Part shown: positions 6,500 to 39,669 of the stretch, in pieces
Position numbering within the stretch: position 1 is the stretch's first letter
How the letters are laid out: every line of letters begins with the position of its first letter
NCBI GenBank assembly: GCA_023136245.1
Contig: JAGLRO010000003.1
Span: forward strand, 1 to 61,968
Reading direction: 5' to 3'
DNA from: Candidatus Heimdallarchaeota archaeon
Lineage (GTDB): Archaea > Asgardarchaeota > Heimdallarchaeia > Heimdallarchaeales > Heimdallarchaeaceae
Length of the DNA: 61,968 bases
Made by a program: the position numbers and the translations under genes
The notes under the pieces: generated by a model
Told to the model about the DNA's origin: nothing
Databases searched by the model: none
Seen by the model: the letters and a program-made list of their open reading frames with translations, nothing else

Positions 6500-6587
6500 G
6501 AATGAACGAAAAAGTTTATTTTTTTTACTAAAATATAAAATAACATTTAAAGTGATAAAAAGAAGGAAAGAAGAATAGAAGTGGAGA

Positions 6588-6743: not shown

Positions 6744-6789
6744 TCTTATTACACCTCTAATTTCACTTCTTGTTTTTTATTTAAAGGAA

Positions 6790-6800
6790 ATGTAATATTA
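6790..6800. promoter_or_regulatory. candidate RHH operator half-palindrome ATGTAATATTA
   Basis: It lies 47-57 nt upstream of the RHH start at 6743. The motif and spacing match the palindrome upstream of the paralog at 21543..21556. Confidence 0.3.
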
Positions 6801-6955
6801 GGAAAATATACTTCTCTATTTTCGCATAGGTTTCTGATATGTACTTTTCTATAAAAAATTATACAATAATTCTACTTAAAGCGCGTGTAGCACCATTTAT
6901 CTCAAGTTTAGAAGATAATACAATTACGACTAGTTTGGTAGGAGGTCCATTTTTT

Positions 6956-7282
6956 TCATTTTATATCTGTTCCAGGAGGAACTTTCCTGTCAAGATTTAG
7001 TAGAATTGGTTCCCCATCAATATCAGCTGCTAATAGCATACCATCTGATTTTTCACCCATTAAAGTTGCTGGTTTAAGATTTGTAACTACTACTATTTGT
7101 CGTCCAATCAAATCTTCTGGATTGTAATATTTCTTAATTCCTGCCAGTATTTGTCTTTGTTCTTCTCCTAAGTCTATATTCAGCTTTATTAGATTTTTAC
7201 TTTTCTCAATTGATTCTGCATTGACTATTGTAGCGACTTTCAATTCAACTTTCTTGAATTCATCATAGCTTATTTCGTCCAT
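6956..7282 (-). CDS. tRNA-binding domain protein (Trbp111/CsaA-like; stand-alone MetRS C-terminal domain)
   Basis: FKKVELKVATIVNAE...KLNIDLGEE.RQILAGI...LIGRQIVVVTNLKPATLMGEKSDGMLLAA is the OB-fold tRNA-binding domain that is normally fused to the MetRS C-terminus. It sits 12 nt downstream of metG. Confidence 0.8.
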   Translation of the reverse strand: MDEISYDEFKKVELKVATIVNAESIEKSKNLIKLNIDLGEEQRQILAGIKKYYNPEDLIGRQIVVVTNLKPATLMGEKSDGMLLAADIDGEPILLNLDRKVPPGTDIK

Positions 7283-7294
7283 CTTTTCAACCTC

Positions 7295-18104: not shown

Positions 18105-18965
18105 ATGAATACTGAAACACATTTCTGTTTAAGAGTTGATGTAGACACCTTTGAAGGATTAAAAAAGGGAATCCCCAAATGCATCAAATTTGCTGAAAAA
18201 ACTGGTTGTCCTATAACTATGTATCTTAGTTTAGGTAAATATGTAACAGGAAGAAATATCTTCAGAATAATTAGAGATAGGGAGAAAATTAAAATCACAA
18301 TACCTCCTTGGAAAAGAAGTTCAATAAGGAGTATTTTTCGAGGGATACTCCTTCCTCCTGCTAAGATTGGTGATAAAGAAAAATATCTACTACAACAATA
18401 TAATCAATCAGAAAACATAGAAATTCAACCTCATGGATTTAATCATGTTAAATGGTCTTCGCATTTTGCAAGTTTCTCTGAGGAAAAAACGCATGAATAT
18501 GTAGATGCATTTATAGAAGAATATGAATCAATTTTCAGTACTAAACCTATAGCAAATGCTGCACCCAATTTTCAAGTAAATGATTATTATTTTCAACTTT
18601 TATCAAATAAAGAGTTTAAATTTTCTTCAGATTTTCAATATTCTCATCCCTTCAATCTACAACCTTACAATATTATTCAATTACCAATAACAGAACCCAC
18701 AATAGAAGAGTTTCTACATCAAAGAAAAACTCCAAAACAAATATTAGAAGTATTCAGAAAGCGATTTGAAAGTTTAAAAAATGAAAAAACCAATTATGTC
18801 TGTTTTTATGTCCATGCTATTTTTGAACCTTTTAAACTAGAAAAGTTATTAGAAGATATATGTAAAATGGTTTATAGATACGATCTGAAACCCACATTTC
18901 AAAGTAATTACTATAATGTTGTTGATGAGTATCCTCAATTGAAATTTTCTCAAATACAAAAATGA
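18105..18965 (+). CDS. ArnD-like polysaccharide deacetylase/deformylase (CE4-related)
   Basis: CLRVDVDTFEGLKKGIPKCIKFA lines up with my recollection of E. coli ArnD ([22 protein letters not shown]). HGFNHVKW matches HAWDHHAW, and FYVHAIFEP matches YTIHAEVEG. Confidence 0.65.
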   Translation: MNTETHFCLRVDVDTFEGLKKGIPKCIKFAEKTGCPITMYLSLGKYVTGRNIFRIIRDREKIKITIPPWKRSSIRSIFRGILLPPAKIGDKEKYLLQQYNQSENIEIQPHGFNHVKWSSHFASFSEEKTHEYVDAFIEEYESIFSTKPIANAAPNFQVNDYYFQLLSNKEFKFSSDFQYSHPFNLQPYNIIQLPITEPTIEEFLHQRKTPKQILEVFRKRFESLKNEKTNYVCFYVHAIFEPFKLEKLLEDICKMVYRYDLKPTFQSNYYNVVDEYPQLKFSQIQK

Positions 18966-20176: not shown

Positions 20177-21103
20177 TCAATTAGTCTTTTTTTCGCTTTT
20201 TGGAAGTACAAATAACCAGAATATGGGGACCCACATAATTAAGAATACATAACCTAAGTAGTCGTGAACTGGACCAGCAACAGACCAATCTCGAAAATAA
20301 AAGATGAAGATTATTACAATAACTCTAAGAATGTTTATCAAATAGGTACCAAGTATTCCTACTAGAGTTACAACAGCGGTTTTAAAATCAAATTTAAGTC
20401 TCTTACGTGCTTCGAATAACATTAAAAGGAATATTGCAAAAAAGATTGTAAGAGAATGAATACCACTGCAGCGCGCATCAATTGCTATGCTTTTCAGCCC
20501 ATCTGGTCCATTAAACGTAAGAAGAGTCATTCCAGTGTTGACATTCCAAACTGAATCTACGATATTCAAACCAAAAACACGTAATAATGCAGTAGTTACA
20601 ACACCTGTAATTTTTGTAAGCCATTCCGCAATCGAAAGACGAAATAGATATTCATCAACCCCAGAATAAATCAGTGTGTAGAAAATCGCTGTCAGAAAAA
20701 TCATATATAATGCAGGAGATCGATATTTTCCAAAAAACTGATCATTCCAAGTAAGTAATAATGATGCAATAAATGCAAAAACTATTCCTATTGGAACTAA
20801 TAGCCTAGTAGGGTAATCAAAAAACAATATCCTCACCATCTCTTCGCTTCTATGACCTTCAAACATGATGTAGAAATAAACAACAAAAGCTAGAAGTATC
20901 AAGGAAAAAGTATAACGGAATATTCTTGTCTTGAAAGGAGAGAAGATTGGATTCATTTTATCTCCCAAGGTTTTTAGATGATCTTTGAATCCGGAAATAA
21001 ATTTGGATAATTTAGTTTTTGCTTTCATTATTATGGAAAGTGAATCTTGTTTGCTATCAACTTCTACCTTTGCAGAACTTTCAAAATCTTGAGATTCATC
21101 CAT
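20177..21103 (-). CDS. archaeosortase/exosortase-family transpeptidase
   Basis: About 8 TM helices, with the catalytic-type motif IDARCSGIHSL and the downstream NILRVIV...GPVHDYLGYVF (Arg/His) signature of the exosortase/archaeosortase family. Confidence 0.75.
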   Translation of the reverse strand: MDESQDFESSAKVEVDSKQDSLSIIMKAKTKLSKFISGFKDHLKTLGDKMNPIFSPFKTRIFRYTFSLILLAFVVYFYIMFEGHRSEEMVRILFFDYPTRLLVPIGIVFAFIASLLLTWNDQFFGKYRSPALYMIFLTAIFYTLIYSGVDEYLFRLSIAEWLTKITGVVTTALLRVFGLNIVDSVWNVNTGMTLLTFNGPDGLKSIAIDARCSGIHSLTIFFAIFLLMLFEARKRLKFDFKTAVVTLVGILGTYLINILRVIVIIFIFYFRDWSVAGPVHDYLGYVFLIMWVPIFWLFVLPKSEKKTN

Positions 21104-21285
21104 ATAGTTATTCTCCTAAATATCCAGCTTTGTTTTGTATTTGTTGCTATATTTTTTTGATATATTAGTTTCTCGTTGAGAAATAAATTATGTTTTTCAA
21201 TGTTGTTTATAATATTCTTTTTTCTCTATCTGTTAAACATAACGTTTATTCAACAAACAAGAAAAATTAGAAGAGACTGGATAAC

Positions 21286-21495
21286 TTAGTCATCTTCAAA
21301 AATTACATTGCTATATGCAAATTCCACATTAGGAAAGCGGAAATCTGTTGACTGTTTTGTTGCATAATGCTCCTTGTAAAAATCACGTAAAGCTAATCTT
21401 ATTGCTTCAGACCTTGAAGCATATTTTCCCTGCAGAACCATTTCATCCAGAATTTCTACAAACTCACTCGGCAACCTTATAGATATGAGATTCAT
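21286..21495 (-). CDS. ribbon-helix-helix (CopG-type) DNA-binding protein
   Basis: MNLISIRLPSEFVEILDEMVLQGKYASRSEAIRLALRDFY is a canonical RHH N-terminus. It is a paralog of 6588..6743. Confidence 0.75.
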   Translation of the reverse strand: MNLISIRLPSEFVEILDEMVLQGKYASRSEAIRLALRDFYKEHYATKQSTDFRFPNVEFAYSNVIFEDD

Positions 21496-21542
21496 TTGTT
21501 CACCCCAAGAGACTTAATCCTATTCGAATCAATTAAAATTAT

Positions 21543-21556
21543 ATGTAATGTTACAT
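21543..21556. promoter_or_regulatory. palindrome ATGTAA-TG-TTACAT, candidate RHH operator next to AT-rich TATA-like sequence
   Basis: A perfect 6+6 inverted repeat lies 48-61 nt upstream of the RHH start at 21495. A further TGTAACA copy sits at 21566-21572. Confidence 0.35.
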
Positions 21557-21689
21557 TTATATTTTTGTAACACAGATGCGTACATAGGATTGAGTGATGT
21601 ACCTCGAATCAAGATGTTATTTAAGGTTTGTCACAGTCTTTGTTGATCTACTAAAAAGTTAGAGGATTTTCTTATTTTTATAGAATGTT

Positions 21690-22259
21690 TTATAGATTAA
21701 TTTCTTCATTACATTCATCACATCTTAATGTTGTACCTTCTTCTAAGGGTTCTTTTGCTTTCATCAAAACCTGACCACAATAACAGACATATCCTTGCAG
21801 TTTTGCTGGATTACCAAACACTAGAGTGAATGGTTTTACATCTCTTGTTACAACACTCCCTGCACCTATCATTGCATATTCACCTAATGTATTCCCACAA
21901 ATTATTGTAGAGTTAGCTCCAACTGAAACTCCTTTTTTCACCAAAGTTTTGACTAATGTCCAATCTGGGTTTGTTGCTCTTGGAAGAAAATCATTAGTAA
22001 AACAAACATGAGGACCTATAAAGACATCATCCTCAATTGTAACTCCATGATAAACTGAAACAAGGTTTTGAATCTTGACATTATCTCCAATTGAGACTTC
22101 ATAATCAATGAATACAGATTTCCCTAGGATGCAATTTTGTCCAATCTTTGCACCAGTTCTGACCTGTACCAGACGCCAAATTTTAGTATTTTTACCTATT
22201 GCAACATTTTCTTCTATAAATGCAGAAGGATGAACAAAGAACTTCTTTTTTTCACTCAT
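21690..22259 (-). CDS. left-handed beta-helix sugar N-acetyltransferase (WbpD/WlbB-like) with a C-terminal zinc ribbon
   Basis: FVHPSAFIEENVAIGKNTKIW...KIQNLVSVYHGVTIEDDVFIGPHVCFTND resembles the WbpD hexapeptide core as I recall it. The tail carries CYCG...CDEC. Confidence 0.7.
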   Translation of the reverse strand: MSEKKKFFVHPSAFIEENVAIGKNTKIWRLVQVRTGAKIGQNCILGKSVFIDYEVSIGDNVKIQNLVSVYHGVTIEDDVFIGPHVCFTNDFLPRATNPDWTLVKTLVKKGVSVGANSTIICGNTLGEYAMIGAGSVVTRDVKPFTLVFGNPAKLQGYVCYCGQVLMKAKEPLEEGTTLRCDECNEEINL

Positions 22260-22309
22260 AATTTTCTGAAGGAGAATAGAAATAAAAAAGTTTACATCAG
22301 TTTATTCTT

Positions 22310-23374
22310 CTAAATCCCTTTAACTCTTAATTTAATTTTAACAAAAGGTCTTTTCATCATCCCTTTCACTACCCTCCAGAAGATTGTTCTATCGATAAGA
22401 CCCGATTGAAGAGTAAGGTATTGTCCTTGTTTAAGTACAAGGAAACCTGCTGCTACATCTGACAAAAAATTAGCTCTACCTTGCTTCTTTTTAGATTGCT
22501 TGTATGATTTTCTAAGTATTCTAAATCCCCATCTTCTAATGATGAAAGAATACCAAGGTGTTTGTGCAAACCTATAATTATGAATTTCACCTTTAACTTC
22601 ATATTTAAGTTGGCTAAATCCTTCTCTCTTTGCAGCTTTAATAACAGGAACTGACAAAGGTTTTATCCCCATAGTTTTTGCAGCAACACAATCAGTTGCA
22701 AAAGGATCATCACCTATTATTAATAATTCTGTTTCCATTCGTTCACCATCTGAAGGTCCTGATCCCTCCATCGAAGTTGTTCCATCAATTATTGATAGAG
22801 TAGGTGGAAAAAGCTCAATCAAATCTAGGATAACTTCATTCAGAAATGGATGATATCTTTTCTTTGAACGTCTAGCTATTAGTCCAAATTGATTTTTCAA
22901 AACACATGTAATTCTATGTTGAGTGTGAGTTTTGAGTTTTGCCACATTAATATATTTGGTCATCCTTAGTAAAGTGTCTGAAACTGTAAGTTCATTAAAA
23001 TATAAACCATCTACATGTATTCGATGTTTAGAATCAGCTGATAGGTTTACCAATTCAATATTGTCATATTTATCTTTAATAGTAGCATAACCCATTCTTT
23101 CGAATTCTTCATCTGCTGTAGCTAAAGAATGATCACTTTCTACTATAGCAATTGGACATGTGGAGTTTCTTCTTATAGATTTTATTAGAGCTTCAACAAT
23201 CAAAGGATTAGTTGTACCGCCTTGCTCAGGAGGACGAAAATCACCGAGATTTGGTTTTATGACTACTAAATCATTGTCGCATACTGTGAACTTCAATGAA
23301 TCTAAAGATTCAAAAACCACCTTGTCAATGTCAGTAGACTTTACATTATTTGAGACAATTGTAACAGGAAACAT
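22310..23374 (-). CDS. DUF362-domain protein with a basic C-terminal extension
   Basis: VVIKPNLGDF near the N-terminus, KTH in the middle and IIDGTTSMEGSGP are typical of DUF362. Confidence 0.6.
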   Translation of the reverse strand: MFPVTIVSNNVKSTDIDKVVFESLDSLKFTVCDNDLVVIKPNLGDFRPPEQGGTTNPLIVEALIKSIRRNSTCPIAIVESDHSLATADEEFERMGYATIKDKYDNIELVNLSADSKHRIHVDGLYFNELTVSDTLLRMTKYINVAKLKTHTQHRITCVLKNQFGLIARRSKKRYHPFLNEVILDLIELFPPTLSIIDGTTSMEGSGPSDGERMETELLIIGDDPFATDCVAAKTMGIKPLSVPVIKAAKREGFSQLKYEVKGEIHNYRFAQTPWYSFIIRRWGFRILRKSYKQSKKKQGRANFLSDVAAGFLVLKQGQYLTLQSGLIDRTIFWRVVKGMMKRPFVKIKLRVKGI

Positions 23375-23375
23375 T

Positions 23376-24380
23376 TCAATCCTCCAAAGAAACTACTTTA
23401 GATGTGTTGTTTTGTAAGTATGCGTTTTCTATTATTCTTGAATTTTGAAGTATTTCTCTCTCTTTAGTGATAGGGTTTGTTTTTCCTTGCACAATTTCAT
23501 AAAAGTGAAGTAGTTCATCTTGAAATGGGGAAATTGAACGATTTGGTTTTATCAATATTGGGGGTTGCGCAAGAAAATCTTTTGCATGGTATTGAATCTT
23601 CTTATTATCTGAAATAGCTCTAGCATATCCTTCTGTTCCAAAAACTGTGAAAGAATTAACAGTTAATTTGTTCCATCCGATATGTAAGGATACTTGTACA
23701 TCATTTTCAAATTCTATTGATAAATATGCAATATCATCAACAGCTAATTTTCTATCTTTAGTCAATACATAGGATTGTAAAGATATAGCTTTTCCAAAAA
23801 ACCAAGAAGAAAGATCAACAAAATGCATCATCTCAAACAAAGCTCCACCTCCTCTTTTCTTATCTTGTTGGAATTTTGTTATACTCGGCCATTTGAAGGC
23901 ATTAGCAAAATGTAATCCATGTCCTCCGATCATTCGACCAAACATTTTTTTCTTTATCATTTCATATATTTTTGAGTACTTTCCATCAAATCTCATTTGA
24001 TATCCTACAAGTAATTGAACATTATTCTCTTTGCAGTTTTCAATTATTTCGACAGTCTCATCGACATTCATTGCTAAGGGTTTTTCACAGAAAATATGTT
24101 TTTTCTTAAGTGCAGACTGAATGATAAGATCTTTGTGAAAAGTAGGAGGAGATAATATTAACACTGCTTCTACTCTTTCATCTTCCAGTGCTGAATTGAG
24201 AGTTGATTCAGTAATTGCATCTAATCTGAACAAATTCTTAAGATGCTTAGCTCTATCTTTTTGAGGATCAATCAAGTATTTAATTTTGAATTCTGGCATT
24301 CGCTGCAAAACAGGTAAGTGATAATATTCTGCGACAGCTCCGCATCCTACTATAGCGATTTCAATTTTCTTCTTCATCAC
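23376..24380 (-). CDS. Gfo/Idh/MocA-family NAD(P)-dependent oxidoreductase (WbpB-like)
   Basis: Rossmann start IAIVGCGAVAEYYHLP, the EKPLA motif and a C-terminal alpha/beta domain. It is adjacent to sugar-modifying genes. Confidence 0.75.
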   Translation of the reverse strand: MMKKKIEIAIVGCGAVAEYYHLPVLQRMPEFKIKYLIDPQKDRAKHLKNLFRLDAITESTLNSALEDERVEAVLILSPPTFHKDLIIQSALKKKHIFCEKPLAMNVDETVEIIENCKENNVQLLVGYQMRFDGKYSKIYEMIKKKMFGRMIGGHGLHFANAFKWPSITKFQQDKKRGGGALFEMMHFVDLSSWFFGKAISLQSYVLTKDRKLAVDDIAYLSIEFENDVQVSLHIGWNKLTVNSFTVFGTEGYARAISDNKKIQYHAKDFLAQPPILIKPNRSISPFQDELLHFYEIVQGKTNPITKEREILQNSRIIENAYLQNNTSKVVSLED

Positions 24381-24429
24381 AATATGTACTTATTGTCCAT
24401 GCTTTAAGTATTGTCTCAATTGAATCTAA

Positions 24430-25110
24430 CTAAATTAAATAGTAAAAGATCATTGAAGCAACAAAAGCCATAATGCTGGCTATAACACCTATAAGTACTG
24501 GTACTTTATGCTCAGTACTCAACCCTACTCCTGCTATTATGCTTGAATAAAAAGATGTTATTGGGTAAAGAATATTATTTGCTAAATTGTATCCAGAAAA
24601 TGTAGTATTAAAAGATGTGAATATTTCTTCTACTAGTATTGAAGTAGAAATTGTTGCTTCTGGTTGAGCAATCCCAATAAATATCAGAATTATCAATCCT
24701 AAAACAATAGGAATCTGAGCAATACTAAATATTGAAACAGATCGGAGAAATTTACCTTTTCCACCCATCAATATCATTAGACCATAAATTAAAACAGACC
24801 ACACTAAAATTTGGGGAACTGCAGTTAGTGAAATCCCCAAGTAATAACTCTCCTTGAATGAGTTTACTTGCTCTTCCACAAAAGGTACAAAATCACTTTT
24901 ACTTAGCAATACTGCAAAAACACCTAATCTTAATGACATAAGCAGTATTAAAACAATGATTGGGACACAAATATAGTAGAATTTGGAAATATTCAGAAAA
25001 CTTGAAGAATCTAATAAATGATGACCCATAATCCGTTTTAGAGGTGTTGAATGATATGTATCATCTTGTATTTCGTCAATCTGAGCAGTACCTGCATCCA
25101 TTAAACTCAA
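24430..25110 (-). CDS. Yip1-domain multi-pass membrane protein
   Basis: Five TM helices, with the GGKGKFLRSVSIFSIAQIPIVLG segment typical of prokaryotic Yip1-domain proteins. Confidence 0.5.
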   Translation of the reverse strand: MSLMDAGTAQIDEIQDDTYHSTPLKRIMGHHLLDSSSFLNISKFYYICVPIIVLILLMSLRLGVFAVLLSKSDFVPFVEEQVNSFKESYYLGISLTAVPQILVWSVLIYGLMILMGGKGKFLRSVSIFSIAQIPIVLGLIILIFIGIAQPEATISTSILVEEIFTSFNTTFSGYNLANNILYPITSFYSSIIAGVGLSTEHKVPVLIGVIASIMAFVASMIFYYLI

Positions 25111-25194
25111 TTATCGACAGAATCATTGGTTTTTAAACAATGTTTTTCAGCCAATTTAGAATTAGTGAATAATTAATTTGTAATTAATTTGTAT

Positions 25195-25947
25195 TTACTT
25201 TGAACATGCATCACAAGTTTCATTCTTCTCTATTTCAAAGGTTTCAAAGGAGTTATACTGAATATCCGCATACAATATTCTGTTTGTTAGAAGTTTTTCT
25301 TTATCACCATAAACAAGGAATTTTACTGCTTCATTAGCTTCTATTATACCAAATAGACCTGCAGTTGTCCCCATAACACCTTCTTCACTTGTTGTAGGAT
25401 AAGTTCCAGGTTCTGGGATTTCCTTGAAGACACATCTATAACAAGGTGTTTCTCCTGGAATAACCGTCATTAATTGTCCTTCATATTGAAAGACACCTCC
25501 AATCACGAAAGGTACCATTAACTTCACGCAAATATCATTAACAAGAAATTTTGTTTCAAAATTGTCACTAGCTTCAATAACAAAGTCATACCCACCTATG
25601 ATATCTTCAATGTTATCAGAAGTTAAGCTAATCGCATACTCCTGAATTCGTATATCAGAATTTAATTTTGATAGCTTATCGTAAGCAGAAGAAGTTTTAG
25701 GCTTGGACACATCGTATTCAGAGTATAAAATCTGTCTATTTAAATTTGATAATTCTACTTTGTCTTTATCTAAGATGCCTATATGACCTACTCCTGCGCT
25801 TACTAAATAAAATAGAGCTCCTGATCCCAAACCTCCCAAGCCGATTACTAATACTTTACCATTTTTTAACTTCATTTGCCCTTCTAAACCAAGATTAGGA
25901 ATGATTATTTGTCGATTATACTTTTCCATTTCGTTTTCGTTAAGCAT
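25195..25947 (-). CDS. ThiF/MoeB/UbaA-family E1-like adenylyltransferase
   Basis: YNRQI, the GLGGLGSG nucleotide loop, DxDxVExSNLNRQ, and CYRC plus C-terminal CDAC zinc ligands. Confidence 0.85.
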   Translation of the reverse strand: MLNENEMEKYNRQIIIPNLGLEGQMKLKNGKVLVIGLGGLGSGALFYLVSAGVGHIGILDKDKVELSNLNRQILYSEYDVSKPKTSSAYDKLSKLNSDIRIQEYAISLTSDNIEDIIGGYDFVIEASDNFETKFLVNDICVKLMVPFVIGGVFQYEGQLMTVIPGETPCYRCVFKEIPEPGTYPTTSEEGVMGTTAGLFGIIEANEAVKFLVYGDKEKLLTNRILYADIQYNSFETFEIEKNETCDACSK

Positions 25948-26026
25948 TTCAACTACCTTTACCAGTTATTGAGAGATGACATACTTTTATTTCTAATTAC
26001 TCATTCAAAATTATTTCTTAGAGACA

Positions 26027-26431
26027 TTAAATACTTGCCACATATTCTTTCTCAATTAGCTTACGAAAATTTTCAATTTTGTTTAAAACTTTCTTTGCTT
26101 CAATTGAAACATTATTTGGAAGTTTTCCAAAACCTAAAGCTTTTTCGTAGCATTTTGAAAAATAGTTTAATTGGAATACAAGTTGAACAATACGAGCATA
26201 CTGAAAAACTTGATCTGGATCAATGACTAATGCAACCTTGAGTGAGATTTCATTCTGTTCTTCTGGAGTTAAATCGATATTTATTTCGTCTCTATTGCAG
26301 AGATCAAATAATCTATTTAACAGAAACCTTCCTTGTTTTAAAACTTGAGCTAACTCTTCTGCCACATCAGCGAGACCAGGAACTTCTCTACTTATGATTT
26401 CAGCATTCTCAGTAACACTTTCAAGATGCAT
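26027..26431 (-). CDS. hypothetical helical protein
   Basis: 134-aa ORF lying co-directionally between the ribophorin-like gene and the E1-like gene. I recognise no motif. Confidence 0.35.
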   Translation of the reverse strand: MHLESVTENAEIISREVPGLADVAEELAQVLKQGRFLLNRLFDLCNRDEINIDLTPEEQNEISLKVALVIDPDQVFQYARIVQLVFQLNYFSKCYEKALGFGKLPNNVSIEAKKVLNKIENFRKLIEKEYVASI

Positions 26432-26549
26432 TGTTTCACTCAGATGGTTTGTAAGAAGAAGTTCTTTAATGTTCTTATAAACATTTTCAGATTAATTGTT
26501 AAATTGGAAAATATACACAGAAATGAAAGGAAAAAGGAACTGAAAAAAA

Positions 26550-28646
26550 TTATGGTTCTAGAAGCATTCTTAATCCAACTAGAATTCCATCAATTTCATT
26601 CTTTAGTTTTTCAATTGTTTGTTGTCTTTCCCTAAACAGTTTTACATAGGATTCTTTTGTCATGCTCTTTTTAACACGATATTCTTGCTGTAAAGCACGT
26701 AGATTTCGTCTTTCTTCGTAGAGCTTTCTTTCAGCTATTTCGATTTTCTGAACCGATTCCTTGAACCTTCCGCCTTTCTTGATAAGATTTTCTTTTGTTA
26801 CCTTCAAAGATACTTCTTCAGCTCGCAAACGTTTTTCCAGTTTTGCTCTCAAATCCTTTCCTTCTTTGGCTTTTAATTTCTTAGCTGAAATCTTTGCTCT
26901 TGTCTCTCTAAGTCTTTCTCTGATCGATAATATTTCCTCATATTGCTTAACAAACTCTTCAATTTCTTCAATTGGGATAAATTCTTTTTCAATCTCAATT
27001 CCAGCAACATCTTTTACAGCTTTTGTGGACCATCTTATCCCTAAGTAAACGACGAAAATAAGACCTACACCAATAACTTGGAGGAAGTAAGTAAGCCATA
27101 AATTGAATCTCGAGTAATTAAATCGAATAATAAGAGGTGCATTATCACTACCAGAAAAATCAACAGAGGAATATTGTAAAACTCTCTTGAAACCTAAACC
27201 GATTAAATCAAATTCTTTCTTATAACCCATCACAATTTCTTGGTAAGGATCAGGATTTCTATAATCAGAAGAGATGTACACAGCACCTTTTGGTAGAACA
27301 ACATCTAATAGAAGTTCATCAATAGTCCAATTTATTACTGAACATGGTTCTAAGCTTAGTTCATATCTTATAGATCCTTGTTCCTTTTTAAGAACAGAAC
27401 CAATAGGTAGTTTATATACGATAGTGAAACTTAACTCATCGCCACCAAACAATGGACTTCGTGGAAAAATGACTAAACCAGGATGATTTGGAAAGATACT
27501 ATCTCGGATATTATATGAACCTCTTTCAAAATGTCCCGATTCATCTTTTTGATAATCTAAGTTTAATGCCCCGATTTCATCATCTAATGATAGAACGGTT
27601 GAATTGGGGGGTAGAACGATAGTGAAAGCATTCAATGAATACAATTTGAAAGTTGACAGTTGGTGATTTGGAGGAGCTTCAGGTCCAAGAAAAACAATAT
27701 CTTGTCTTTCTGTTATCGTTACAAGACCAAGAGGGTCTACCTCGATTCTTCGATGAATTTGTGAAGCTTTAATTAGAATTGTATTGGTAGCTTCTGCTAT
27801 TGCTTCAGTTGTACTTACAGAAGTTGTATACACATTCATTATTAAATCATCAGTATAAGTTTGACTGTTATTGAATGCAATCCTTGTAATGTTAGTCCAT
27901 TTTAAAGTGTCTGATTCAGGTTGTAACAAAAATGTGAGTCCTTCTGTACTATTGTTTGGAGTTATAGGATTTTCTACTGTATCTACAAAATTATCATTTC
28001 CTTGTTTAAGAACAGTTGTTGTACTATTCGCGATTGGAAAGTTATTGATGAGAGGATAGAGTAATTCAGTATAGTATAAAAGTTGTTCATTATCTTGAAG
28101 AGTTGCAGTATATGGTAGGGAAAACTCTAAGTATACACTGATAAAGAAAATATCATCTCTTCCTATACTTCCCAATGTTCTATTGAAAGGTATGACGAAG
28201 GTTGTATAATTTAATGACCTATGAAACAAATAGGTTCTTGTGGAATTTGCTTCTCCCAAATCTTCATAGGAATTATTAGCAACTCGAAAGCTAATGAATC
28301 TTAAATTATCAACATTTATGTTAGGTAATGTATAATTGAAATAAACTATTGATTCATTTCCGATTATTGATATTTTGATAGAATCTATTATTGTAATGGT
28401 ACCATAGTGTTCTAAGGTTATTGTTCTATTCACTTGAGAAGTGGCATTAAATTCATAAGCGTAATCAGTGACATCAGAATAACTAAAATCACCAATTGGA
28501 AGAATAGGGTTATTTCCTATGTTTAGCTGTTCATCTTGTGTAAATGAATTATTTGAGCTTCGAACTATACTGAACATCGTTAAAAATGACAAACAAATAA
28601 TTGCAAGTATAGTTAAAGCAAATATTGATTTTTTAGCTTTTTGCAT
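26550..28646 (-). CDS. ribophorin I / Ost1-like type I membrane protein (oligosaccharyltransferase-subunit homolog)
   Basis: Signal anchor, a luminal domain of about 500 aa, one TM helix (LWLTYFLQVIGVGLIFVVYLGI) and a 161-aa K/E/R coiled-coil tail. IHRRIEVDPLGLVTITE, FPRSPLFGGD and IDELLLDVVLPKGA line up with my recollection of human RPN1 (VIEVSHWGNIAVEE, RPRFPLFGGW, IDSLTVKIILPEGA). Confidence 0.65.
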   Translation of the reverse strand: MQKAKKSIFALTILAIICLSFLTMFSIVRSSNNSFTQDEQLNIGNNPILPIGDFSYSDVTDYAYEFNATSQVNRTITLEHYGTITIIDSIKISIIGNESIVYFNYTLPNINVDNLRFISFRVANNSYEDLGEANSTRTYLFHRSLNYTTFVIPFNRTLGSIGRDDIFFISVYLEFSLPYTATLQDNEQLLYYTELLYPLINNFPIANSTTTVLKQGNDNFVDTVENPITPNNSTEGLTFLLQPESDTLKWTNITRIAFNNSQTYTDDLIMNVYTTSVSTTEAIAEATNTILIKASQIHRRIEVDPLGLVTITERQDIVFLGPEAPPNHQLSTFKLYSLNAFTIVLPPNSTVLSLDDEIGALNLDYQKDESGHFERGSYNIRDSIFPNHPGLVIFPRSPLFGGDELSFTIVYKLPIGSVLKKEQGSIRYELSLEPCSVINWTIDELLLDVVLPKGAVYISSDYRNPDPYQEIVMGYKKEFDLIGLGFKRVLQYSSVDFSGSDNAPLIIRFNYSRFNLWLTYFLQVIGVGLIFVVYLGIRWSTKAVKDVAGIEIEKEFIPIEEIEEFVKQYEEILSIRERLRETRAKISAKKLKAKEGKDLRAKLEKRLRAEEVSLKVTKENLIKKGGRFKESVQKIEIAERKLYEERRNLRALQQEYRVKKSMTKESYVKLFRERQQTIEKLKNEIDGILVGLRMLLEP

Positions 28647-29703: not shown

Positions 29704-32367
29704 ATGAAGCAATTTGATGATAGGAAGCTTAGACCTAAATTAACCCCTATGATGCAACAATGGCAAGATATCAAGAAACAATATACAGATTACATACTTT
29801 TTTTCAGAGCGGGAGATTTTTACGAATGCTTCAATGAAGATGCAAAAATTGCTTCAAAGGTTCTAAATATAACCTTAACTGCAAGAACACTTGGAGAAAA
29901 GAAATTTCCTTTAGCCGGTGTTCCATATCACGCAGTTGATGCTTATATAGCAAAGATGGTTGAAGGAGGTTATAGGGTTGCAGTAGTTGAGCAACTTGAG
30001 GATCCTAAAGTTGCAAAGAAGATTGTGAAAAGGGGAGTAGTTCAATTAGTAACTAGAGGAACAATTACTCTTCCTGAATCGCTTACTAAAGGAAGGAATA
30101 ATTATTTATCCTCAATTTACAAAGAGGGAGAAATGCTTGGTTTTGCAGCTCTTGATTTATCTACTGGAGAATTCTTAGTTACAGATTTTGAAGGTGATGC
30201 AGCTCAGAATTTATTAGAAGTAGAATTATCCCGTTTAAATACCTCCGAAATTATAGTTCAAGAAGAGTTATGGTCAAAACTAGGTTTTTATCATGATCAA
30301 CAAAAATGTACCATAACATACAGAGAGGATTACTTTTTCAATATTGAACAAGGACAGCAAGATCTATGTAGATTACTTAATGTTCTAAGTTTAGATGGTT
30401 ATGGAGTAAATGAATATAATCCCTCCATAGGTGCTGCTGGGGCAATTTTGAGATATATAAAAGAAACTCAAATGAGAGAGAACTTTCCTAATATTACTAA
30501 AATTAGTCAGATAAAAAGTCAGGATTTCATGATTCTAGATTTTAACACCATAAGAAATCTAGAGCTTATCGAAAATCTAAGAGATAGAACTGAATATGGA
30601 ACATTAAGGCAAGTATTAGATAATACAAAAACACCAGGTGGTTCAAGATTACTAACATCATGGATACTTCGACCAAGTTTTGACTATACAGTAATACAAA
30701 ACAGGATTGATGCTACAGAAGAAATGCTCGACGACACTATTGCTAGAGATGAATTGAGAAACATTTTGAGTAGAATGAGTGATATTGAAAGACTAACTAG
30801 CAGAATATGCCTTGGCAGAAGCAAACCAAGAGACTTGATTGCACTTAGAAATTCCCTAGAGTTAATTCCAGATGTTAAAACAAATTTATTGAAATTCAAA
30901 ACATTACTGCTCAAGGAAATAGAAAATAATCTTGATCCCTTGAAAGAAGTTGTGAACATTATCTGCACTGGAATTCAAGATGAAGTACCCGTAAATATCA
31001 AAGATGGTAATGTTATACGTGATGGATATAATGCAGATTTAGATGAACTTCGTAATATTCAGAGAAGTGGAAAATCATTTCTAACTTCATTGGAAGCAAG
31101 AGAAAAGGTAAAAACAGGGATCAAAACACTCAAAGTACGTTTCAATAAAGTGTTTGGATATTATATCGAGATACCAAAAGCATCTTCTGAAGATGTTCCA
31201 TCAGATTATGAAAGGAAACAAACATTGGTTAATGCAGAACGATTTGTGACTCCAGAACTTAAGGAATATGAAGAAAAGATACTAAATGCTGAGGAAAAAA
31301 TTCTAGTTCTTGAAGAAGAACTGTTTAACAAGATAATGAAAGAAATCGCTCAGTTTGCTACTAATATTCAACAAGATGCATATTATTGTTCTGTAGCAGA
31401 TGTAATCGCTACTTTTGTACAAAATGCTTCATTTTATCACTATTCCAAACCAGAAATATCAGAAGAGAATATAATCGAAATAAAGGATGGAAGACATCCA
31501 GTAGTAGAAAAACTCCTAACCCAAACTTCCTTTATACCAAATGATATTATTATTAAGAAAGACTCTGAAAGAATTCTAATTATAACAGGACCAAACATGG
31601 GTGGGAAGAGTACTCTATTACGACAAGTTGCTTTAATTGTACTAATGGCTCAAATTGGAAGTTTTGTACCAGCAAGTTCAGCTAAGATTGGTTTAACTGA
31701 TAGGATTTTCACAAGAATCGGAGCACACGATGTAATCGTTGAAAATAGATCCAGTTTTTTAGTAGAAATGTATGAATGTGCCAACATCCTCAATAATGCT
31801 ACTGAACAAAGCTTGGTTATTCTTGATGAGGTTGGTAGAGGAACATCCACTTATGATGGTGTAGCTCTTGCCTGGTCAATCATTGAGTATCTCCATGATC
31901 ATATTGGTCAGATTAGTCCAACAACACTTTTTGCTACCCACTATCATAAATTAATAGATTTAGAAAAATTACTTCCTAATGTAAAAAACTATCATGCTTC
32001 TGTTAAGAATGTTAATGGAGATATACATTTCTTATACAAATTAAAAGAGGGAGGAATTAGTGAAAGTTTTGGAATTCATGTAGCATCATTAGCAGGATTA
32101 CCAGAAGATGTCATTGATAAAGCCAATGATATGTTGTCATTATTACAAAAGGAAGATTTGGAAAACGGGATTAGACACATTTCACAAGAAAATGAGTCTC
32201 AGATGAAAGCTCCAGTAAAATCTCAAAAAACTGCTAAAAAAACCGTAGTAGATGAATTAATTTCTAATATTAATGAAGTAAAATTAGATGAAATAACTCC
32301 AATAGAAGCTTTGAATATTCTAAGCGATTTAGTGAAAAAGAGCAAGAAAATTCTAAAAGACAAATAA
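29704..32367 (+). CDS. mutS: DNA mismatch repair protein MutS (bacterial MutS1 type)
   Basis: N-terminal TPMMQQW...FFRAGDFYE mismatch-binding motif, the Walker A motif GPNMGGKST, DEVGRGTSTYDG and a THYH motif. Confidence 0.95.
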   Translation: MKQFDDRKLRPKLTPMMQQWQDIKKQYTDYILFFRAGDFYECFNEDAKIASKVLNITLTARTLGEKKFPLAGVPYHAVDAYIAKMVEGGYRVAVVEQLEDPKVAKKIVKRGVVQLVTRGTITLPESLTKGRNNYLSSIYKEGEMLGFAALDLSTGEFLVTDFEGDAAQNLLEVELSRLNTSEIIVQEELWSKLGFYHDQQKCTITYREDYFFNIEQGQQDLCRLLNVLSLDGYGVNEYNPSIGAAGAILRYIKETQMRENFPNITKISQIKSQDFMILDFNTIRNLELIENLRDRTEYGTLRQVLDNTKTPGGSRLLTSWILRPSFDYTVIQNRIDATEEMLDDTIARDELRNILSRMSDIERLTSRICLGRSKPRDLIALRNSLELIPDVKTNLLKFKTLLLKEIENNLDPLKEVVNIICTGIQDEVPVNIKDGNVIRDGYNADLDELRNIQRSGKSFLTSLEAREKVKTGIKTLKVRFNKVFGYYIEIPKASSEDVPSDYERKQTLVNAERFVTPELKEYEEKILNAEEKILVLEEELFNKIMKEIAQFATNIQQDAYYCSVADVIATFVQNASFYHYSKPEISEENIIEIKDGRHPVVEKLLTQTSFIPNDIIIKKDSERILIITGPNMGGKSTLLRQVALIVLMAQIGSFVPASSAKIGLTDRIFTRIGAHDVIVENRSSFLVEMYECANILNNATEQSLVILDEVGRGTSTYDGVALAWSIIEYLHDHIGQISPTTLFATHYHKLIDLEKLLPNVKNYHASVKNVNGDIHFLYKLKEGGISESFGIHVASLAGLPEDVIDKANDMLSLLQKEDLENGIRHISQENESQMKAPVKSQKTAKKTVVDELISNINEVKLDEITPIEALNILSDLVKKSKKILKDK

Positions 32368-32415
32368 TAATAAGAACTGAAATGCTCTTTCACAAAATAG
32401 TACATCTGTGGTATT

Positions 32416-34236
32416 ATGAATAGGAAGATAATCAAACTTGACACAATTACAATTAACAAAATAGCCGCAGGAGAAGTAATAGGACGCCCTGCATCAGTTG
32501 TTAAAGAACTCTTAGAGAACTCTATTGATGCTAACAGCAGTAAAATTGCAATAAACATACAAGATGGTGGAAAAAAACTAATAGAAATCATCGATAATGG
32601 TTTTGGAATGAATCATGAAGATGTGATTCAAGCTATAAATCGATATACAACAAGTAAAATTAGAAATGCTGATGACCTTTTTTCAATAAGTAGTTTGGGA
32701 TTTCGAGGAGAAGCATTAGCTAGTATCGTCAGTGTAGCTCAAGTAGAGATTATCACAAAGACTGAAGACCACGAACTTGGAACTCATCTAATTGTGGAAG
32801 GAGGAGAATTTCTATCAGATAAACAAATTTCAGCTCCAAACGGAACTCGTATCATTGTAAAGAATCTTTTTTATAATGTCCCTGTACGAAGAAAATTTCT
32901 TAAAACAACATCTACAGAGATTAATCATATAACTGAATTCGTAACAAAACTTGCGCTTGCTTATCCATCAATTTCATTTTCTCTTTCTCATAATGGAAAA
33001 AGCCTAATAACTGCCCCCAAGGGCGATTTAATAAATCAAATTACTTCTATATTTGGTGAGAGTATAGCTAAGGCTTGTATTCCAATAAACAAAAATCAGG
33101 ATAGATACAATGTTAAAGGATACATAACTAAGCCTGAATTTTCCCGAAAATCCAAAGATTATCTATATATTTTTGTTAATTCCAGATCCATTTCCAATAA
33201 AACAATCTCTGATGCAGTTCTCCGAGGATATGGTACATCAGTTCCAAGTAGTAGATTCCCAATAATCTTTCTATATCTCGATTTACCTAAAGATGAAGTT
33301 GATGTGAATGTCCATCCAACAAAGAAAGAGATACGTTTTAGCAATGATTCCAAAGTCTTTACACTAGTTGAAAGTGCAATAAGAGAATCATTGGAAAATA
33401 GTGGTTTAAAAATCTTTGAAAGAATTTCTGAAACAAGATTTAAACCCACAACCCTAAAAAGAGCAGACATAGTGAAAACTGAATCTAAGAGTACTGTTAT
33501 TCAAGATGCTTTTAAGACATATAAAGCAGAAAAACCAGATTTTCTAATAACAAAAAGTAGAGAACAAAGTATAGACAGATTTTTACCCAAAGAATACACG
33601 ACAGATCAACAGATCAGTGGAATAATTTCAAGAAAAAGAACAATTAGAGTGTTAGGAATTATTAAGGATACTTACATTATCGCAGAGTCACAGGAAGGAT
33701 TATTCTTATGCGATCAACATGCTGCTCATGAAAAAATAAATTATGCAAAATATATAGAACAAATTAGAAAAAAGAAAGTGAGTATTCAACAGTTGCTTGC
33801 ACCTGTTTCTGTTTCTCTGAAACCATCGGAATTTAACTTAATAGATGAAATAAAGCAAATTTTGAAGCTGTATGGTTTTGAAATTGATATTTTTGGTAAA
33901 AATGAAGTAGTCATACGATCCATACCCTCTATTATGGGTGTAAATATCGAATATAAAACAGCAAGAGATATAATCGATATCTTCAAGGAAAATGTTTCAG
34001 AAATAAAAGACAGTTTAGAAATAGAAGATCTAAACTTCATTAAGGAAATTGTGTCTATGTTCGCTTGCAGACGATCAATAAAAGCTGGAGATAAAATAAC
34101 GATAGAACAAGCAGAAATACTCTTGAGAAATCTTTTGGAACTTGAAGATCCCTTTTCTTGCCCTCATGGTCGTCCAACAGTTATAATTCTAAACGATGAA
34201 TATATGGAAGAGCTTTTTCAAAGAGATTACAGATAG
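32416..34236 (+). CDS. mutL: DNA mismatch repair protein MutL (endonuclease-type)
   Basis: GHKL ATPase motifs (IAAGEVI, ELLENSIDA, DNGFGM, GFRGEAL). The C-terminal DQHAAHEKINY, ACRRSIKAGD and CPHGRP motifs mark MutH-independent MutL endonucleases. Confidence 0.95.
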   Translation: MNRKIIKLDTITINKIAAGEVIGRPASVVKELLENSIDANSSKIAINIQDGGKKLIEIIDNGFGMNHEDVIQAINRYTTSKIRNADDLFSISSLGFRGEALASIVSVAQVEIITKTEDHELGTHLIVEGGEFLSDKQISAPNGTRIIVKNLFYNVPVRRKFLKTTSTEINHITEFVTKLALAYPSISFSLSHNGKSLITAPKGDLINQITSIFGESIAKACIPINKNQDRYNVKGYITKPEFSRKSKDYLYIFVNSRSISNKTISDAVLRGYGTSVPSSRFPIIFLYLDLPKDEVDVNVHPTKKEIRFSNDSKVFTLVESAIRESLENSGLKIFERISETRFKPTTLKRADIVKTESKSTVIQDAFKTYKAEKPDFLITKSREQSIDRFLPKEYTTDQQISGIISRKRTIRVLGIIKDTYIIAESQEGLFLCDQHAAHEKINYAKYIEQIRKKKVSIQQLLAPVSVSLKPSEFNLIDEIKQILKLYGFEIDIFGKNEVVIRSIPSIMGVNIEYKTARDIIDIFKENVSEIKDSLEIEDLNFIKEIVSMFACRRSIKAGDKITIEQAEILLRNLLELEDPFSCPHGRPTVIILNDEYMEELFQRDYR

Positions 34237-36617: not shown

Positions 36618-37787
36618 ATGATTTTACACAAAATTATTGCATCTGAATCAGTAACCGAAGGTCATCCTGATAAAATCTGCGATCAAATTTCTGATGCGAT
36701 TTTAGATGCTATTCTTGAAAAGGATCCTGAAGCACATGTTGCATGTGAATGTTTTGTAACTACTGGGCTTGTTCTCATTGGAGGAGAAATAACAACTACT
36801 AAATTAATCAACATAGATTATGATAAAATAGTTAGAAGTACAATCAAAGAAATAGGTTATGATGACTCAAGAATTGGATTTGATTATAGAGGATGTGCTA
36901 TTATAAATACCATTCACTCGCAATCTACAGACATTGCACAAGGTATAGAAAAAGGTGAAAGAGAGGAGCAAGGAGCAGGTGATCAAGGAATCATGTATGG
37001 TTTTGCTACAAATGAATCACCAGAATTCATGCCCTTACCTATAGTTTTAGCACACAAATTAACAATGAAACTCGCAGAAGTTCGTAAAAAAGGCATTTTA
37101 CCATTTCTTAGACCTGATGGAAAATCTCTAGTAGCAGTAGAGTATAGAGATGAAAAACCATTTCGAATAGAAGCAGTTGTTATTGCAGCTCAGCATAAAA
37201 AAGAAGCAACCAATAGTGAAATAACTGAAGGAATTCGAACTGAAGTTATAAATGCAGTCATTCCCTCGAATCTTGTTGATGAGAATACTAAAATAATTAT
37301 AAATCGAACTGGACGTTTTGTTATAGGTGGACCACATGGAGATGCAGGACTTACAGGAAGAAAAATCATAGTAGACACTTATGGTGGTGTTGATTCTCAT
37401 GGTGGAGGGGCTTTTTCTGGTAAAGACCCATCAAAAGTAGATCGTTCTGCATCCTATGCTGCTCGTTATGCTGCAAAAAATGTCGTTGCTGCAGGATTAG
37501 CTGATAAATGTGAAATACAAGTATCATATGCAATAGGGGAACCAAAACCTCTAGCAGTGAATGTTGAATGTTTTGGAACAGAGAAGTTAGACATTGTAAA
37601 ACTACAAAAAGCAGTACTGCAAGTTTTTGACTTTAGACCTGGTAACATCATAGAATATCTTGATTTAAAAAGACCAATCTATAAGAAAACTTCTTGTTAT
37701 GGACATTTTGGAAGAGAACTACCTGAATTTACATGGGAAAGAATTGATAAAATAGATTCCCTTAGAAAAAAAATCGAAGAATTGTAA
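36618..37787 (+). CDS. metK: S-adenosylmethionine synthetase, bacterial/eukaryotic MetK type
   Basis: [56 protein letters not shown] and [17 protein letters not shown] are the classical MetK signatures. Confidence 0.95.
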
Positions 37788-37848: not shown

Positions 37849-38499
37849 ATGTCAAACTATGATAAATCTGAAACCAGAAAAGAAATTCAGAAAATCTTGG
37901 TGGAAGAAAAACCTAAAACAGTTAGAGAACTCGTAAAGAAGACTGTGGTAACTACAGGTAAAGAGAAGGAAGAAATATATCAAATAGTCAAAAAACTGGA
38001 AAAAGAGAGAATAATAAAATTAGGATCACAAAAAGTAGACAGAACCTTACCTACCTCAATTTCCGAATACCTTTTCAAAATTCACTTTTTCTCAATAGAA
38101 TTTTGGAGTATTCTTTTACTGACCTGTATCTTTTTTCCTATTATAATTTTAATTAATCCTGAATCACCATTCCTATTTCTAAGAGTAATTTGGGGATTAC
38201 TTTTCGGATTATTTATACCTGGATGGACTATAACCAATTTGATATTTCCAAAGGTTTTTGAGTTAATTGATCAATTTGAACGAGCGTTGATAGCAATCGG
38301 TGTAAATATTGGAATTTCGATTTTTACTGGTTTAATTCTAAACAACGTATGGATAATAGATTCTATTCCCTTCACAATTACAATTGGGATTCTTACATTT
38401 GTTATATTGATTCTATCGGTAATTTTACGAATCCTTATTGGATCAAATAAAATACAATTCAAAATGCCTAAGATTAAATTGTTCAAGAAAAAAAAGTGA
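37849..38499 (+). CDS. membrane protein with an N-terminal wHTH-like domain (resembles the N-terminal part of DUF1616)
   Basis: A soluble, helical N-terminal domain of about 60 aa (VRELVKK...IYQIVKKLEKERIIKL), followed by 4-5 TM helices. Confidence 0.45.
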   Translation: MSNYDKSETRKEIQKILVEEKPKTVRELVKKTVVTTGKEKEEIYQIVKKLEKERIIKLGSQKVDRTLPTSISEYLFKIHFFSIEFWSILLLTCIFFPIIILINPESPFLFLRVIWGLLFGLFIPGWTITNLIFPKVFELIDQFERALIAIGVNIGISIFTGLILNNVWIIDSIPFTITIGILTFVILILSVILRILIGSNKIQFKMPKIKLFKKKK

Positions 38500-38504
38500 A
38501 GTAA

Positions 38505-39041
38505 ATGCATATAAATCACAAAAGCTGGAAAATAATCCTGAAAATAGCAATTAGTATCTTTCTATTTTTACAAATCTCTACCTCTCTCGCTCAAACTGAA
38601 AATGATGCAATGCTCGCTATTCAACAAGCAGAAGAAAGACTAATTGATGTGATTATATTATTAGAGGGAATATCAGAAACAAGTATTGATACAAGAGATT
38701 TAGTCGTAGAAGCAGATTCATTGCGATTATTAATTTATCAAGCAAATAAAAAACTCGAAGAGGGAGATTACGAACAAGCATATCAAACAGCAAATGATGC
38801 CAAAGAACAACTTGATTCATTACTGAATCTAATAAATCAAAGAATAAGTGGAAATAAGCAAAGATCAAGAGTTCTATATTCAGTTCTGGGATTTCTAGCA
38901 GCAGCTTTTACACTTGCTTTTGTTATTCTATTCTTGAGGAGAATCTATCCCTGGTTTAAAACAAAACAGCTTGAAGAATATGGGAATTTGGAAATAAAGT
39001 ACGAACAAGAAAGTGAGGAGATTACACATGGTAAAAACTAA
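38505..39041 (+). CDS. secreted/anchored coiled-coil protein (hypothetical)
   Basis: Signal peptide (ISIFLFLQISTSLAQ), a helical middle and a C-terminal TM helix (VLGFLAAAFTLAFVILFL) with an acidic tail. Confidence 0.45.
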   Translation: MHINHKSWKIILKIAISIFLFLQISTSLAQTENDAMLAIQQAEERLIDVIILLEGISETSIDTRDLVVEADSLRLLIYQANKKLEEGDYEQAYQTANDAKEQLDSLLNLINQRISGNKQRSRVLYSVLGFLAAAFTLAFVILFLRRIYPWFKTKQLEEYGNLEIKYEQESEEITHGKN

Positions 39042-39042
39042 T

Positions 39043-39669
39043 ATGAAAATCCCACGTGGAAAAAAGAAACGTCAATTTCCCCTAAAAATAAACAAAGAGA
39101 GATTATATGGACCAATTATTATCCTCATCATAGTTGTATCGATTATTACTATAATCTCACTCACATTCTTTCCTTCTTCGCAAGAAGGATTCTCTGAGTT
39201 AACTCTACTAACATATAATTCCAGTGAAGATACTTATGAAGCAGAAAATTATCCATTTTTCATTTATAGACTCAGAAATATTTCTATCCATTTTATTGCA
39301 AAGAATTTTGAAAACAAAGTAACCTATTATCAACTTCAAATTAAAGCTACTAAATTAACTCAAAATCTCAGCACATTATCACCTCTTTCAACTGGTTATT
39401 ATTATTCTATGTATTCAAATAATACTTATGAAAAAATATTATCACCTGCAACAAATACTGAAAAGAAAGAATCTGAAGAAATTGATAGTCATTACATTTG
39501 GAGTCCAACAGTTGTTATACTGTATCTTAATGCTTTTATTGATTTGATGCTGGATGGTGAAAGTGAATTAAAAATTGTATTTGAGTTATGGAAGTTTAAT
39601 ACACAAAGCAATGAATTCCAATATTCTGGTGTGTTCACATTCTTAGAATTAGATATAAGATGGAGCTAA
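39043..39669 (+). CDS. single-TM protein resembling the extracellular C-terminal part of DUF1616
   Basis: ATG at 39043 follows the previous stop directly. After the TM helix, FSELTLLTYNSSEDTYEAENYPF...IAKNFENKVTYYQLQIKA resembles the FTEFY...YP...NHE...Y pattern of DUF1616. Confidence 0.4.
   Translation: MKIPRGKKKRQFPLKINKERLYGPIIILIIVVSIITIISLTFFPSSQEGFSELTLLTYNSSEDTYEAENYPFFIYRLRNISIHFIAKNFENKVTYYQLQIKATKLTQNLSTLSPLSTGYYYSMYSNNTYEKILSPATNTEKKESEEIDSHYIWSPTVVILYLNAFIDLMLDGESELKIVFELWKFNTQSNEFQYSGVFTFLELDIRWS

Follow-up and report, generated by a model that had tools for sequence, protein, structure and literature searches.

Does a heimdallarchaeon encode the ribophorin I subunit of a eukaryote-like oligosaccharyltransferase (OST), complete with a cytoplasmic tail that could contact the ribosome? 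This question is raised by an open reading frame (ORF) of 698 codons in contig JAGLRO010000003.1 of Candidatus Heimdallarchaeota archaeon (assembly GCA_023136245.1), of which the first 61,968 nucleotides, referred to below as the window, were analysed here. An original prediction, made from the letters of this DNA, held that the product resembles eukaryotic ribophorin I (RPN1 in human, Ost1 in yeast) in sequence motifs and in topology. The identification is correct, but homologues of ribophorin I were recognised in Asgard archaea as early as 2017. We find that the protein, hereinafter Ost1, belongs to the ribophorin I family by sequence, fold and topology, and we consider it likely that it functions as the Ost1 subunit of an archaeal OST of the eukaryotic type, with its tail in contact with the ribosome and glycosylation coupled to translocation.

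Family membership, fold and topology

When the protein was compared with the Ribophorin_I profile (PF04597), as the original prediction had proposed, a highly significant match was obtained (E 1.2e-19; 71.2 bits, against a gathering cut-off of 25 bits) that spans practically the full length of the profile, with residues 70-536 of the protein aligned to positions 4-435 of 437. The three short motifs that the original prediction named as common to this protein and human RPN1 are located at residues 297, 394 and 442, and HMMER pairs each of them with the human segment named there (RVIEVSHWGNIAVEE, RPRFPLFGGW and IDSLTVKIILPEGA). A word-indexed search recovered 53 clusters of homologues, nearly all of 693-702 residues and 44-74% identical over the full length, and a precomputed PF04597 match is present in 52 of these. 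Almost all of the named clusters come from Heimdallarchaeota or Heimdallarchaeaceae metagenome-assembled genomes (MAGs), including AB_125, a MAG of 2017 (HeimAB125_05010), and the public annotation of these orthologues is "hypothetical protein" only; the closest orthologue is 74% identical and the closest species-representative locus 61%.

An alignment of 39 members of these clusters was the basis of a family profile and of the structural model described below. With this profile, human RPN1 is matched at E 1.3e-11 (residues 284-638 on 217-568), in an alignment that continues through the transmembrane (TM) helix into the tail, and yeast Ost1 at E 1e-4. Moreover, the crystallised tail of OST1 from Prometheoarchaeum MK-D1 (8WHN) is matched over its entirety (E 2.3e-4, residues 545-694 on 7-158). 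When 1.84 billion representative proteins were searched with the profile, 546 clusters passed E <= 1e-3, and many of these are proteins of about 560-620 residues in which the match extends to the end of the tail; those that are named belong to Asgard archaea, Heimdallarchaeota and Bathyarchaeota.

The identity suggested by the profile search is also borne out by the predicted fold. The AlphaFold2 model (mean predicted local distance difference test score, pLDDT, 78.9; predicted template modelling score 0.63) consists of a helix at residues 3-25, a low-confidence linker that extends to about residue 63, a beta-rich region at 68-510, a TM helix at 513-547 and four tail helices (559-587, 593-623, 626-659 and 664-696; pLDDT 80-90). 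In the Foldseek comparison with the PDB, which had likewise been suggested as a check, the best eight matches are all human RPN1 or yeast Ost1 chains from cryo-electron microscopy structures of OST, with E from 7e-29 to 4e-22, and the next, unrelated fold follows at E 3e-7. Those matches that cover the luminal and TM parts only have a template modelling score on the target of 0.72-0.75 and a root-mean-square deviation of about 5 A. The predicted luminal fold is that of Ost1/RPN1, and neither of the outcomes that the original prediction had named as refuting it, lack of a significant profile match and an unrelated luminal fold, was observed.

The topology that had been claimed, namely, an N-terminal signal segment, a large exported domain, one TM helix and a tail of 161 residues rich in Lys, Glu and Arg, is present in all its parts. 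By hydropathy, the protein has no more than two hydrophobic segments, one at about residues 4-31 and the other at about 514-540; the first of these, a predicted signal segment, starts with a KAKK n-region followed by a hydrophobic core of about 22 residues, and the second is the single TM helix close to the C-terminus, so the protein has a type-I arrangement. Signal peptides are possessed by human and MK-D1 OST1 (PMC11417166). The extracytoplasmic region comprises two halves, 64-285 and 286-512. The 161 residues of the tail (538-698) include 43% Lys, Arg and Glu and carry a net charge of +12. One element of the claim did not survive: the tail had been described as a coiled coil, and the model gives a compact four-helix bundle, with no extended coiled coil. 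The four predicted helices, together with the match to 8WHN over the whole domain, place the protein with the long, RPN1-type ribophorin I forms.

The cytoplasmic tail and its possible partners

Within the family, the tail is the most conserved region of Ost1. The mean identity to the window protein is 76% in the tail, 52-56% in the two luminal halves and 23% in the linker, and about a dozen Arg and Lys residues of the tail are invariant, among them R578, K585, K590, R606, R608, K618, R640, K641, R657, K660 and R674. Such high conservation, with invariant basic residues, is consistent with a partner that itself evolves very slowly, rRNA for instance. Given the charge, the conservation and the precedent of MK-D1, the tail is predicted to be a ribosome-docking domain.

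The precedent is experimental and comes from a distant homologue. The cytoplasmic domain of MK-D1 OST1 was crystallised in 2024 and found to be a four-helix bundle that shares the topology of its human counterpart; in pull-downs, human ribosomes were recovered with the MK-D1 tail and with the human one but not with the extracellular domain (PMC11417166). The statement of the original prediction that the function and partners of the Asgard proteins are untested is therefore outdated. Its companion statement, that ribophorin I homologues had been reported as eukaryotic signature proteins in Asgard archaea, is confirmed by a 2023 study in which Ost1/ribophorin I and Ost3 are described as previously reported and homologues of Ost2, Ost4, Ost5, Swp1 and Wbp1 are added, so that all other OST subunits are covered, with subcomplex III restricted to Heimdallarchaeia (PMC10307638). 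STT3, OST3 and ribophorin have been reported across Asgard phyla (PMC8813620).

Under the mechanism that we propose, Ost1 would be a glycoprotein with type-I topology, residing in the cell membrane of an Asgard archaeon of the Heimdallarchaeia type. The N-terminal signal segment would export a beta-sandwich domain of about 450 residues, itself heavily N-glycosylated, and the single TM helix would anchor the protein. By analogy, its place would be next to the catalytic subunit, AglB/STT3, with which it presumably associates and whose gene would lie in another part of the genome. The basic cytoplasmic four-helix bundle would contact the translating ribosome, by implication the archaeon's own, and through this contact N-glycosylation would be coupled to co-translational translocation via the Sec61/SecY channel.

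Conceivably, the partner that the tail binds is not the ribosome, and the tail would instead tether to the membrane some cytoplasmic factor peculiar to the lineage. One candidate for such a factor is the product of the adjacent gene, a protein of 134 residues with a net charge of -5, complementary to the +12 of the tail, and with even higher conservation than Ost1 (56-84% identity). This gene lies downstream of Ost1 in 30 of the 32 loci examined, and wherever both are present (30/30) it is found about 95-270 nt 3' of Ost1, on the same strand, including the loci with inversions; the association persists also when the gene for the ThiF-family enzyme, the next one downstream, is relocated. Nevertheless, the two most divergent homologues of the 134-residue protein are encoded 33 nt upstream of a ThiF-Yip1 pair in loci without Ost1 (L035 and L037). 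The gene is missing beside distant Ost1 homologues that have the same tail, and the homologous Loki-type tail binds ribosomes directly (PMC11417166). The transcription signals also speak for separation of the two genes: a tract of at least five T residues occurs within 40 nt of the Ost1 stop codon in 30 of 30 loci, and a TATA-like motif at -43 to -50 of the ATG of the 134-codon gene, found in 24 of 30, suggests that this gene has a promoter of its own. A non-ribosomal partner for the tail thus appears rather improbable. A more specific form of this idea, in which the 134-residue protein would be a lineage-specific partner of the Ost1 tail and, in the role of regulator or adaptor, would gate the docking of ribosomes at the OST/Sec translocon, deserves equally little credence. 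To our knowledge, no component of this kind exists in eukaryotes.

In its own right, the 134-residue protein is an orphan. The model, at a pLDDT of 91.8, consists of five helices; across 24 members, Pfam and NCBIfam give no match even at E up to 1, there is no sequence match in the PDB, and Foldseek detects no structure below E 0.4. Origin as a detached paralogue of the Ost1 tail was rejected (hhalign probability 0.3%), and so was the status of an obligatory Ost1 partner, given the Ost1-free occurrences and the absence beside distant homologues described above. The protein is restricted to Heimdallarchaeaceae-type MAGs, and rearrangement breakpoints fall on either side of its gene in different genomes.

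Glycosylation signals and gene context

The extracytoplasmic part of Ost1 is rich in N-glycosylation sequons. The original prediction counted at least 15 N-x-S/T sites, and the actual number is 17, all of them N-terminal to the TM helix, with 16 in residues 64-512 and one (N32) in the linker. Shuffling of the extracytoplasmic region gave 6.9 +/- 2.4 sequons, and none of 2000 shuffled sequences reached 17. Ten of the 17 are kept in at least 36 of the 39 family members, including six that are present in all 39, and each member has 14-21 such sites. Because of this conservation and abundance, Ost1 itself is probably a heavily N-glycosylated substrate, and the conserved sequons would be the positions modified; modification on this scale is plausible in a domain that faces the cell exterior.

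The same observations could be accommodated by a different view of the protein, namely, that it has the Ost1 fold but is no OST subunit and does not depend on AglB for its action. It would then be exposed at the surface, heavily glycosylated, and might assist nascent secreted proteins, either as their chaperone or as their receptor, or else be a component of the cell envelope. The 14-21 sequons per member, ten of them conserved, fit this view, and eukaryotic RPN1 has far fewer; besides, Ost1 adjoins a cluster of genes for glycan synthesis and an archaeosortase, AglB is not encoded nearby, and an isolated Asgard OST complex is lacking. By contrast, the conserved TM helix and the cytoplasmic bundle, which is the best conserved part of the protein, point to a partner in the cytoplasm, a distant homologue (L033) is found without an adjacent glycan cluster, and this lineage also has the remaining OST subunits. 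On balance, a role outside OST seems unlikely.

Several points weigh against the assignment of Ost1 to an OST that works at the ribosome. Annotation of essentially all window ORFs of at least 100 codons with Pfam and NCBIfam revealed no AglB/STT3, Ost3/6 or Sec61 gene, so that the genomic context lends no support to the complex; similarly, none of about 32 related loci has a gene with an STT3, Ost3/6 or Sec61 Pfam domain adjoining Ost1, that is, clustering with such genes was not found. Ribosome binding has been demonstrated only with a distant homologue and on human ribosomes (PMC11417166), and the similarity of the tail to that homologue is modest (E 0.0098 with a single sequence and 2.3e-4 with the profile). 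The literature contains no report of an OST complex isolated from an Asgard archaeon. Clustering with OST or translocon genes is, however, not a defining requirement because the N-glycosylation genes of P. syntrophicum are not clustered near aglB, and the authors of that analysis suggest that the agl genes are dispersed (PMC11284389).

The absence of STT3/AglB from the window, noted already in the original prediction, holds up: the motif WWDxG occurs in no frame of the window, and every ORF of at least 500 codons is otherwise accounted for, these being methionyl-tRNA synthetase, an orphan membrane protein of 551 residues, Ost1, MutS, MutL, FttA and an M32 peptidase. The 551-residue protein (10425..12080, reverse strand), located within the glycosyltransferase cluster, has at least ten TM-like segments; it may represent a glycan polymerase, a flippase or a GT-C enzyme that has yet to be classified. 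Its identification as a cryptic AglB finds no support, as searches of Pfam, NCBIfam and the PDB gave no match and the WWDxG motif is absent. A neighbour of this gene, an ORF of 286 codons (18105..18965), weakly resembles ArnD-type deformylases.

Table 1. Coordinates, in the window, of Ost1, its domains and the adjacent features
Feature	Coordinates	Strand	Basis
Ost1/ribophorin I homologue, coding sequence (698 residues plus stop)	26550..28646	-	ORF with ATG start, PF04597, Foldseek
N-terminal signal peptide or signal anchor, residues 1-30	28557..28646	-	hydropathy and model helix 3-25
Linker, residues 31-63, poorly conserved	28458..28556	-	pLDDT <50; 23% mean family identity
Beta-rich extracytoplasmic ("luminal") region, residues 64-512	27111..28457	-	AlphaFold2 strands, pLDDT 80-94
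Single TM helix, residues 513-547	27006..27110	-	hydropathy, model helix, alignment to human RPN1 TM helix
Basic cytoplasmic four-helix bundle, residues 548-698, predicted ribosome-docking domain	26553..27005	-	model and 8WHN profile match
T7 tract, archaeal terminator-like, immediately 3' of the Ost1 stop codon	26543..26549	-	sequence
TTTATAA box	26475..26481	-	about 45-50 nt 5' of the ATG of the 134-codon gene
134-residue soluble acidic helical orphan	26027..26431	-	between Ost1 and ThiF; belonging to the Ost1 system uncertain
ThiF-family E1-like gene	25195..25947	-	Pfam/NCBIfam
Yip1-domain membrane protein gene	24430..25110	-	marginal Pfam score, 29.2 against a threshold of 28.6 bits

The Ost1 gene, which is preceded by a Shine-Dalgarno-like element, GAGGT, 9 nt 5' of its ATG (for the features of the locus, see Table 1), is followed on the same strand by the genes for the 134-residue orphan, the E1-like enzyme, which matches sulfur-carrier adenylyltransferases of the MoeB/UbaA/ThiF type, the Yip1-domain protein, a GFO/IDH/MocA sugar dehydrogenase and a DUF362 protein. 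Further downstream on this strand are genes for a NeuD-type acetyltransferase and an archaeosortase-like protein, and beyond these, a divergent cluster with glycosyltransferases of families GT2 and GT4; upstream of Ost1 are the divergent genes deoC, mutS and mutL. Thus, the reported co-directionality of Ost1 with the E1-like, Yip1 and sugar-modifying genes is real and extends over 20177..28646. Does it mean that these genes form one functional module? In addition to the shared strand, the order Ost1-134-ThiF-(Yip1)-Hexapep recurs in many related MAGs, and a ThiS/MoaD-like gene precedes the distant Ost1 homologue of locus L033. However, the related loci were found by scanning genome contigs with subfamily-specific peptide patterns, which returned only Heimdallarchaeota-type loci, and although the block is largely syntenic over these 32 loci, all of them come from one clade, so that conserved gene order is expected from shared ancestry. 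Moreover, several genomes depart from this order. In five loci (L003, L018, L022, L030 and L032) an inversion has carried ThiF away, and in at least four more (L012, L024, L026 and L029) the gene has been relocated, which makes nine loci in all; the genes for Yip1, GFO/IDH/MocA and DUF362 are often absent. The resemblance of the ThiF protein to sulfur-carrier adenylyltransferases also argues against a common module, and in L033, where the neighbourhood of Ost1 is wholly different, the genes for MoaC and MoaE point to molybdopterin synthesis. A functional module is, accordingly, largely refuted by these rearrangements and highly unlikely; the implied connection of Ost1 with the E1-like gene, Yip1 and the glycan genes comes down to shared ancestry, not a demonstrated function.

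Locus L033 merits a separate mention: in the region 5508..8178, a ThiS/MoaD-like gene lies immediately upstream of the gene for an Ost1 homologue of 725 residues, with MoaC and MoaE encoded nearby. The occurrence of sulfur-carrier genes near Ost1 in two lineages, if the MoeB/ThiF-type enzyme of the window is considered along with L033, may be a coincidence.

Several other genes of the window are worth noting on their own account. The full-length bacterial-type MutS (domains I-V) and MutL, encoded at 29704..34236 on the forward strand, adjoin deoC and are syntenic with Ost1 in nearly all related loci. The S-adenosylmethionine synthetase (36618..37787, forward) is of the bacterial/eukaryotic MetK type (PF00438, PF02772, PF02773), although the usual enzyme of archaea is of a separate, archaeal type. 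On the same strand, in the region 37849..39669, the DUF1616 profile is split over two ORFs, with positions 12-123 in 37849..38499 and 151-239 in 39013..39669, and an unannotated ORF of 178 codons between them. The arrangement represents either one gene that has been split or a small group of paralogues. A bactofilin-domain protein is encoded at 48318..49220 (forward), and a second Yip1-domain protein, with an N-terminal zinc ribbon (UPF0547), at 53258..54097 (reverse). Also on the reverse strand are a tRNA at 54987..55078, which scores 53.5 bits with Rfam, occupies 92 nt against 71 positions in the model, is not reported by ARAGORN and may contain an intron, and a coiled-coil protein of 408 residues (55207..56433) with weak matches to MAD- and filament-like proteins.

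Comparison with known systems

The presence of ribophorin I homologues supports the view that the translocon and N-glycosylation machinery of the endoplasmic reticulum was assembled in the archaeal ancestor of eukaryotes, and the gene described here is a further clear example, with the full RPN1-type architecture, from the class thought to be closest to eukaryotes. No new principle is added because the family, its distribution in Asgard archaea, the structure of the tail and ribosome binding have all been published. The modestly useful additions are the recognition of the tail as the most constrained part of the protein, the same tail in a homologue from the TACK archaea, and the ten conserved sequons; being kept in the extracellular domain, these sequons would make Ost1 a convenient reporter substrate for Asgard N-glycosylation.

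Among the characterised systems, human RPN1 (6S7O chain E, 8B6L chain O) is the best Foldseek match (E 7e-29) and, like the archaeal protein, consists of a signal sequence, a luminal domain and a single TM helix, followed in the cytosol by a bundle of helices some 150 residues in length. The two are only about 15% identical; the archaeal protein is about 90 residues longer owing to the N-terminal linker and luminal insertions, carries 17 sequons, and, unlike its human counterpart, would reside in the cell membrane, so placed that its "luminal" domain is extracellular. In yeast Ost1 (6EZN, 6C26, 7OCI, 8AGB), the luminal fold and the TM helix superpose on those of the archaeal model (template modelling score 0.72-0.75, deviation about 5 A), but the solved chain has 476 residues and the profile match stops in the luminal part (384-515). 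It follows that yeast Ost1 lacks the long four-helix bundle, and that the archaeal Ost1 is architecturally closer to metazoan RPN1; the predicted ribosome-docking tail is not seen in the solved yeast chain.

The MK-D1 protein (WP_147663064.1; 8WHN) provides the experimental precedent for ribosome binding: its tail is homologous to the one described here over the full length, with GG and Y..K...Y..L motifs common to both, and has the same four helices and basic surface. It differs in coming from another Asgard class, in size (607 against 698 residues) and in the low level of similarity (single-sequence E 0.0098). The literature on this organism is in conflict, in that one 2024 study calls Ost1 absent from Prometheoarchaeum syntrophicum (PMC11284389) and another, of the same year, describes this very protein as its OST1 (PMC11417166). 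HeimAB125_05010 of AB_125 and about 50 further clusters are direct orthologues, with the same neighbourhood and no substantive difference. A Ribophorin-I-like protein of 609-611 residues from Bathyarchaeota (HDI01309.1) belongs to the TACK archaea, not to Asgard, and its luminal part is shorter, but it shares the same tail (29% identity over 129 residues, E 5e-12), which shows that the tail domain predates the Asgard/eukaryote lineage.

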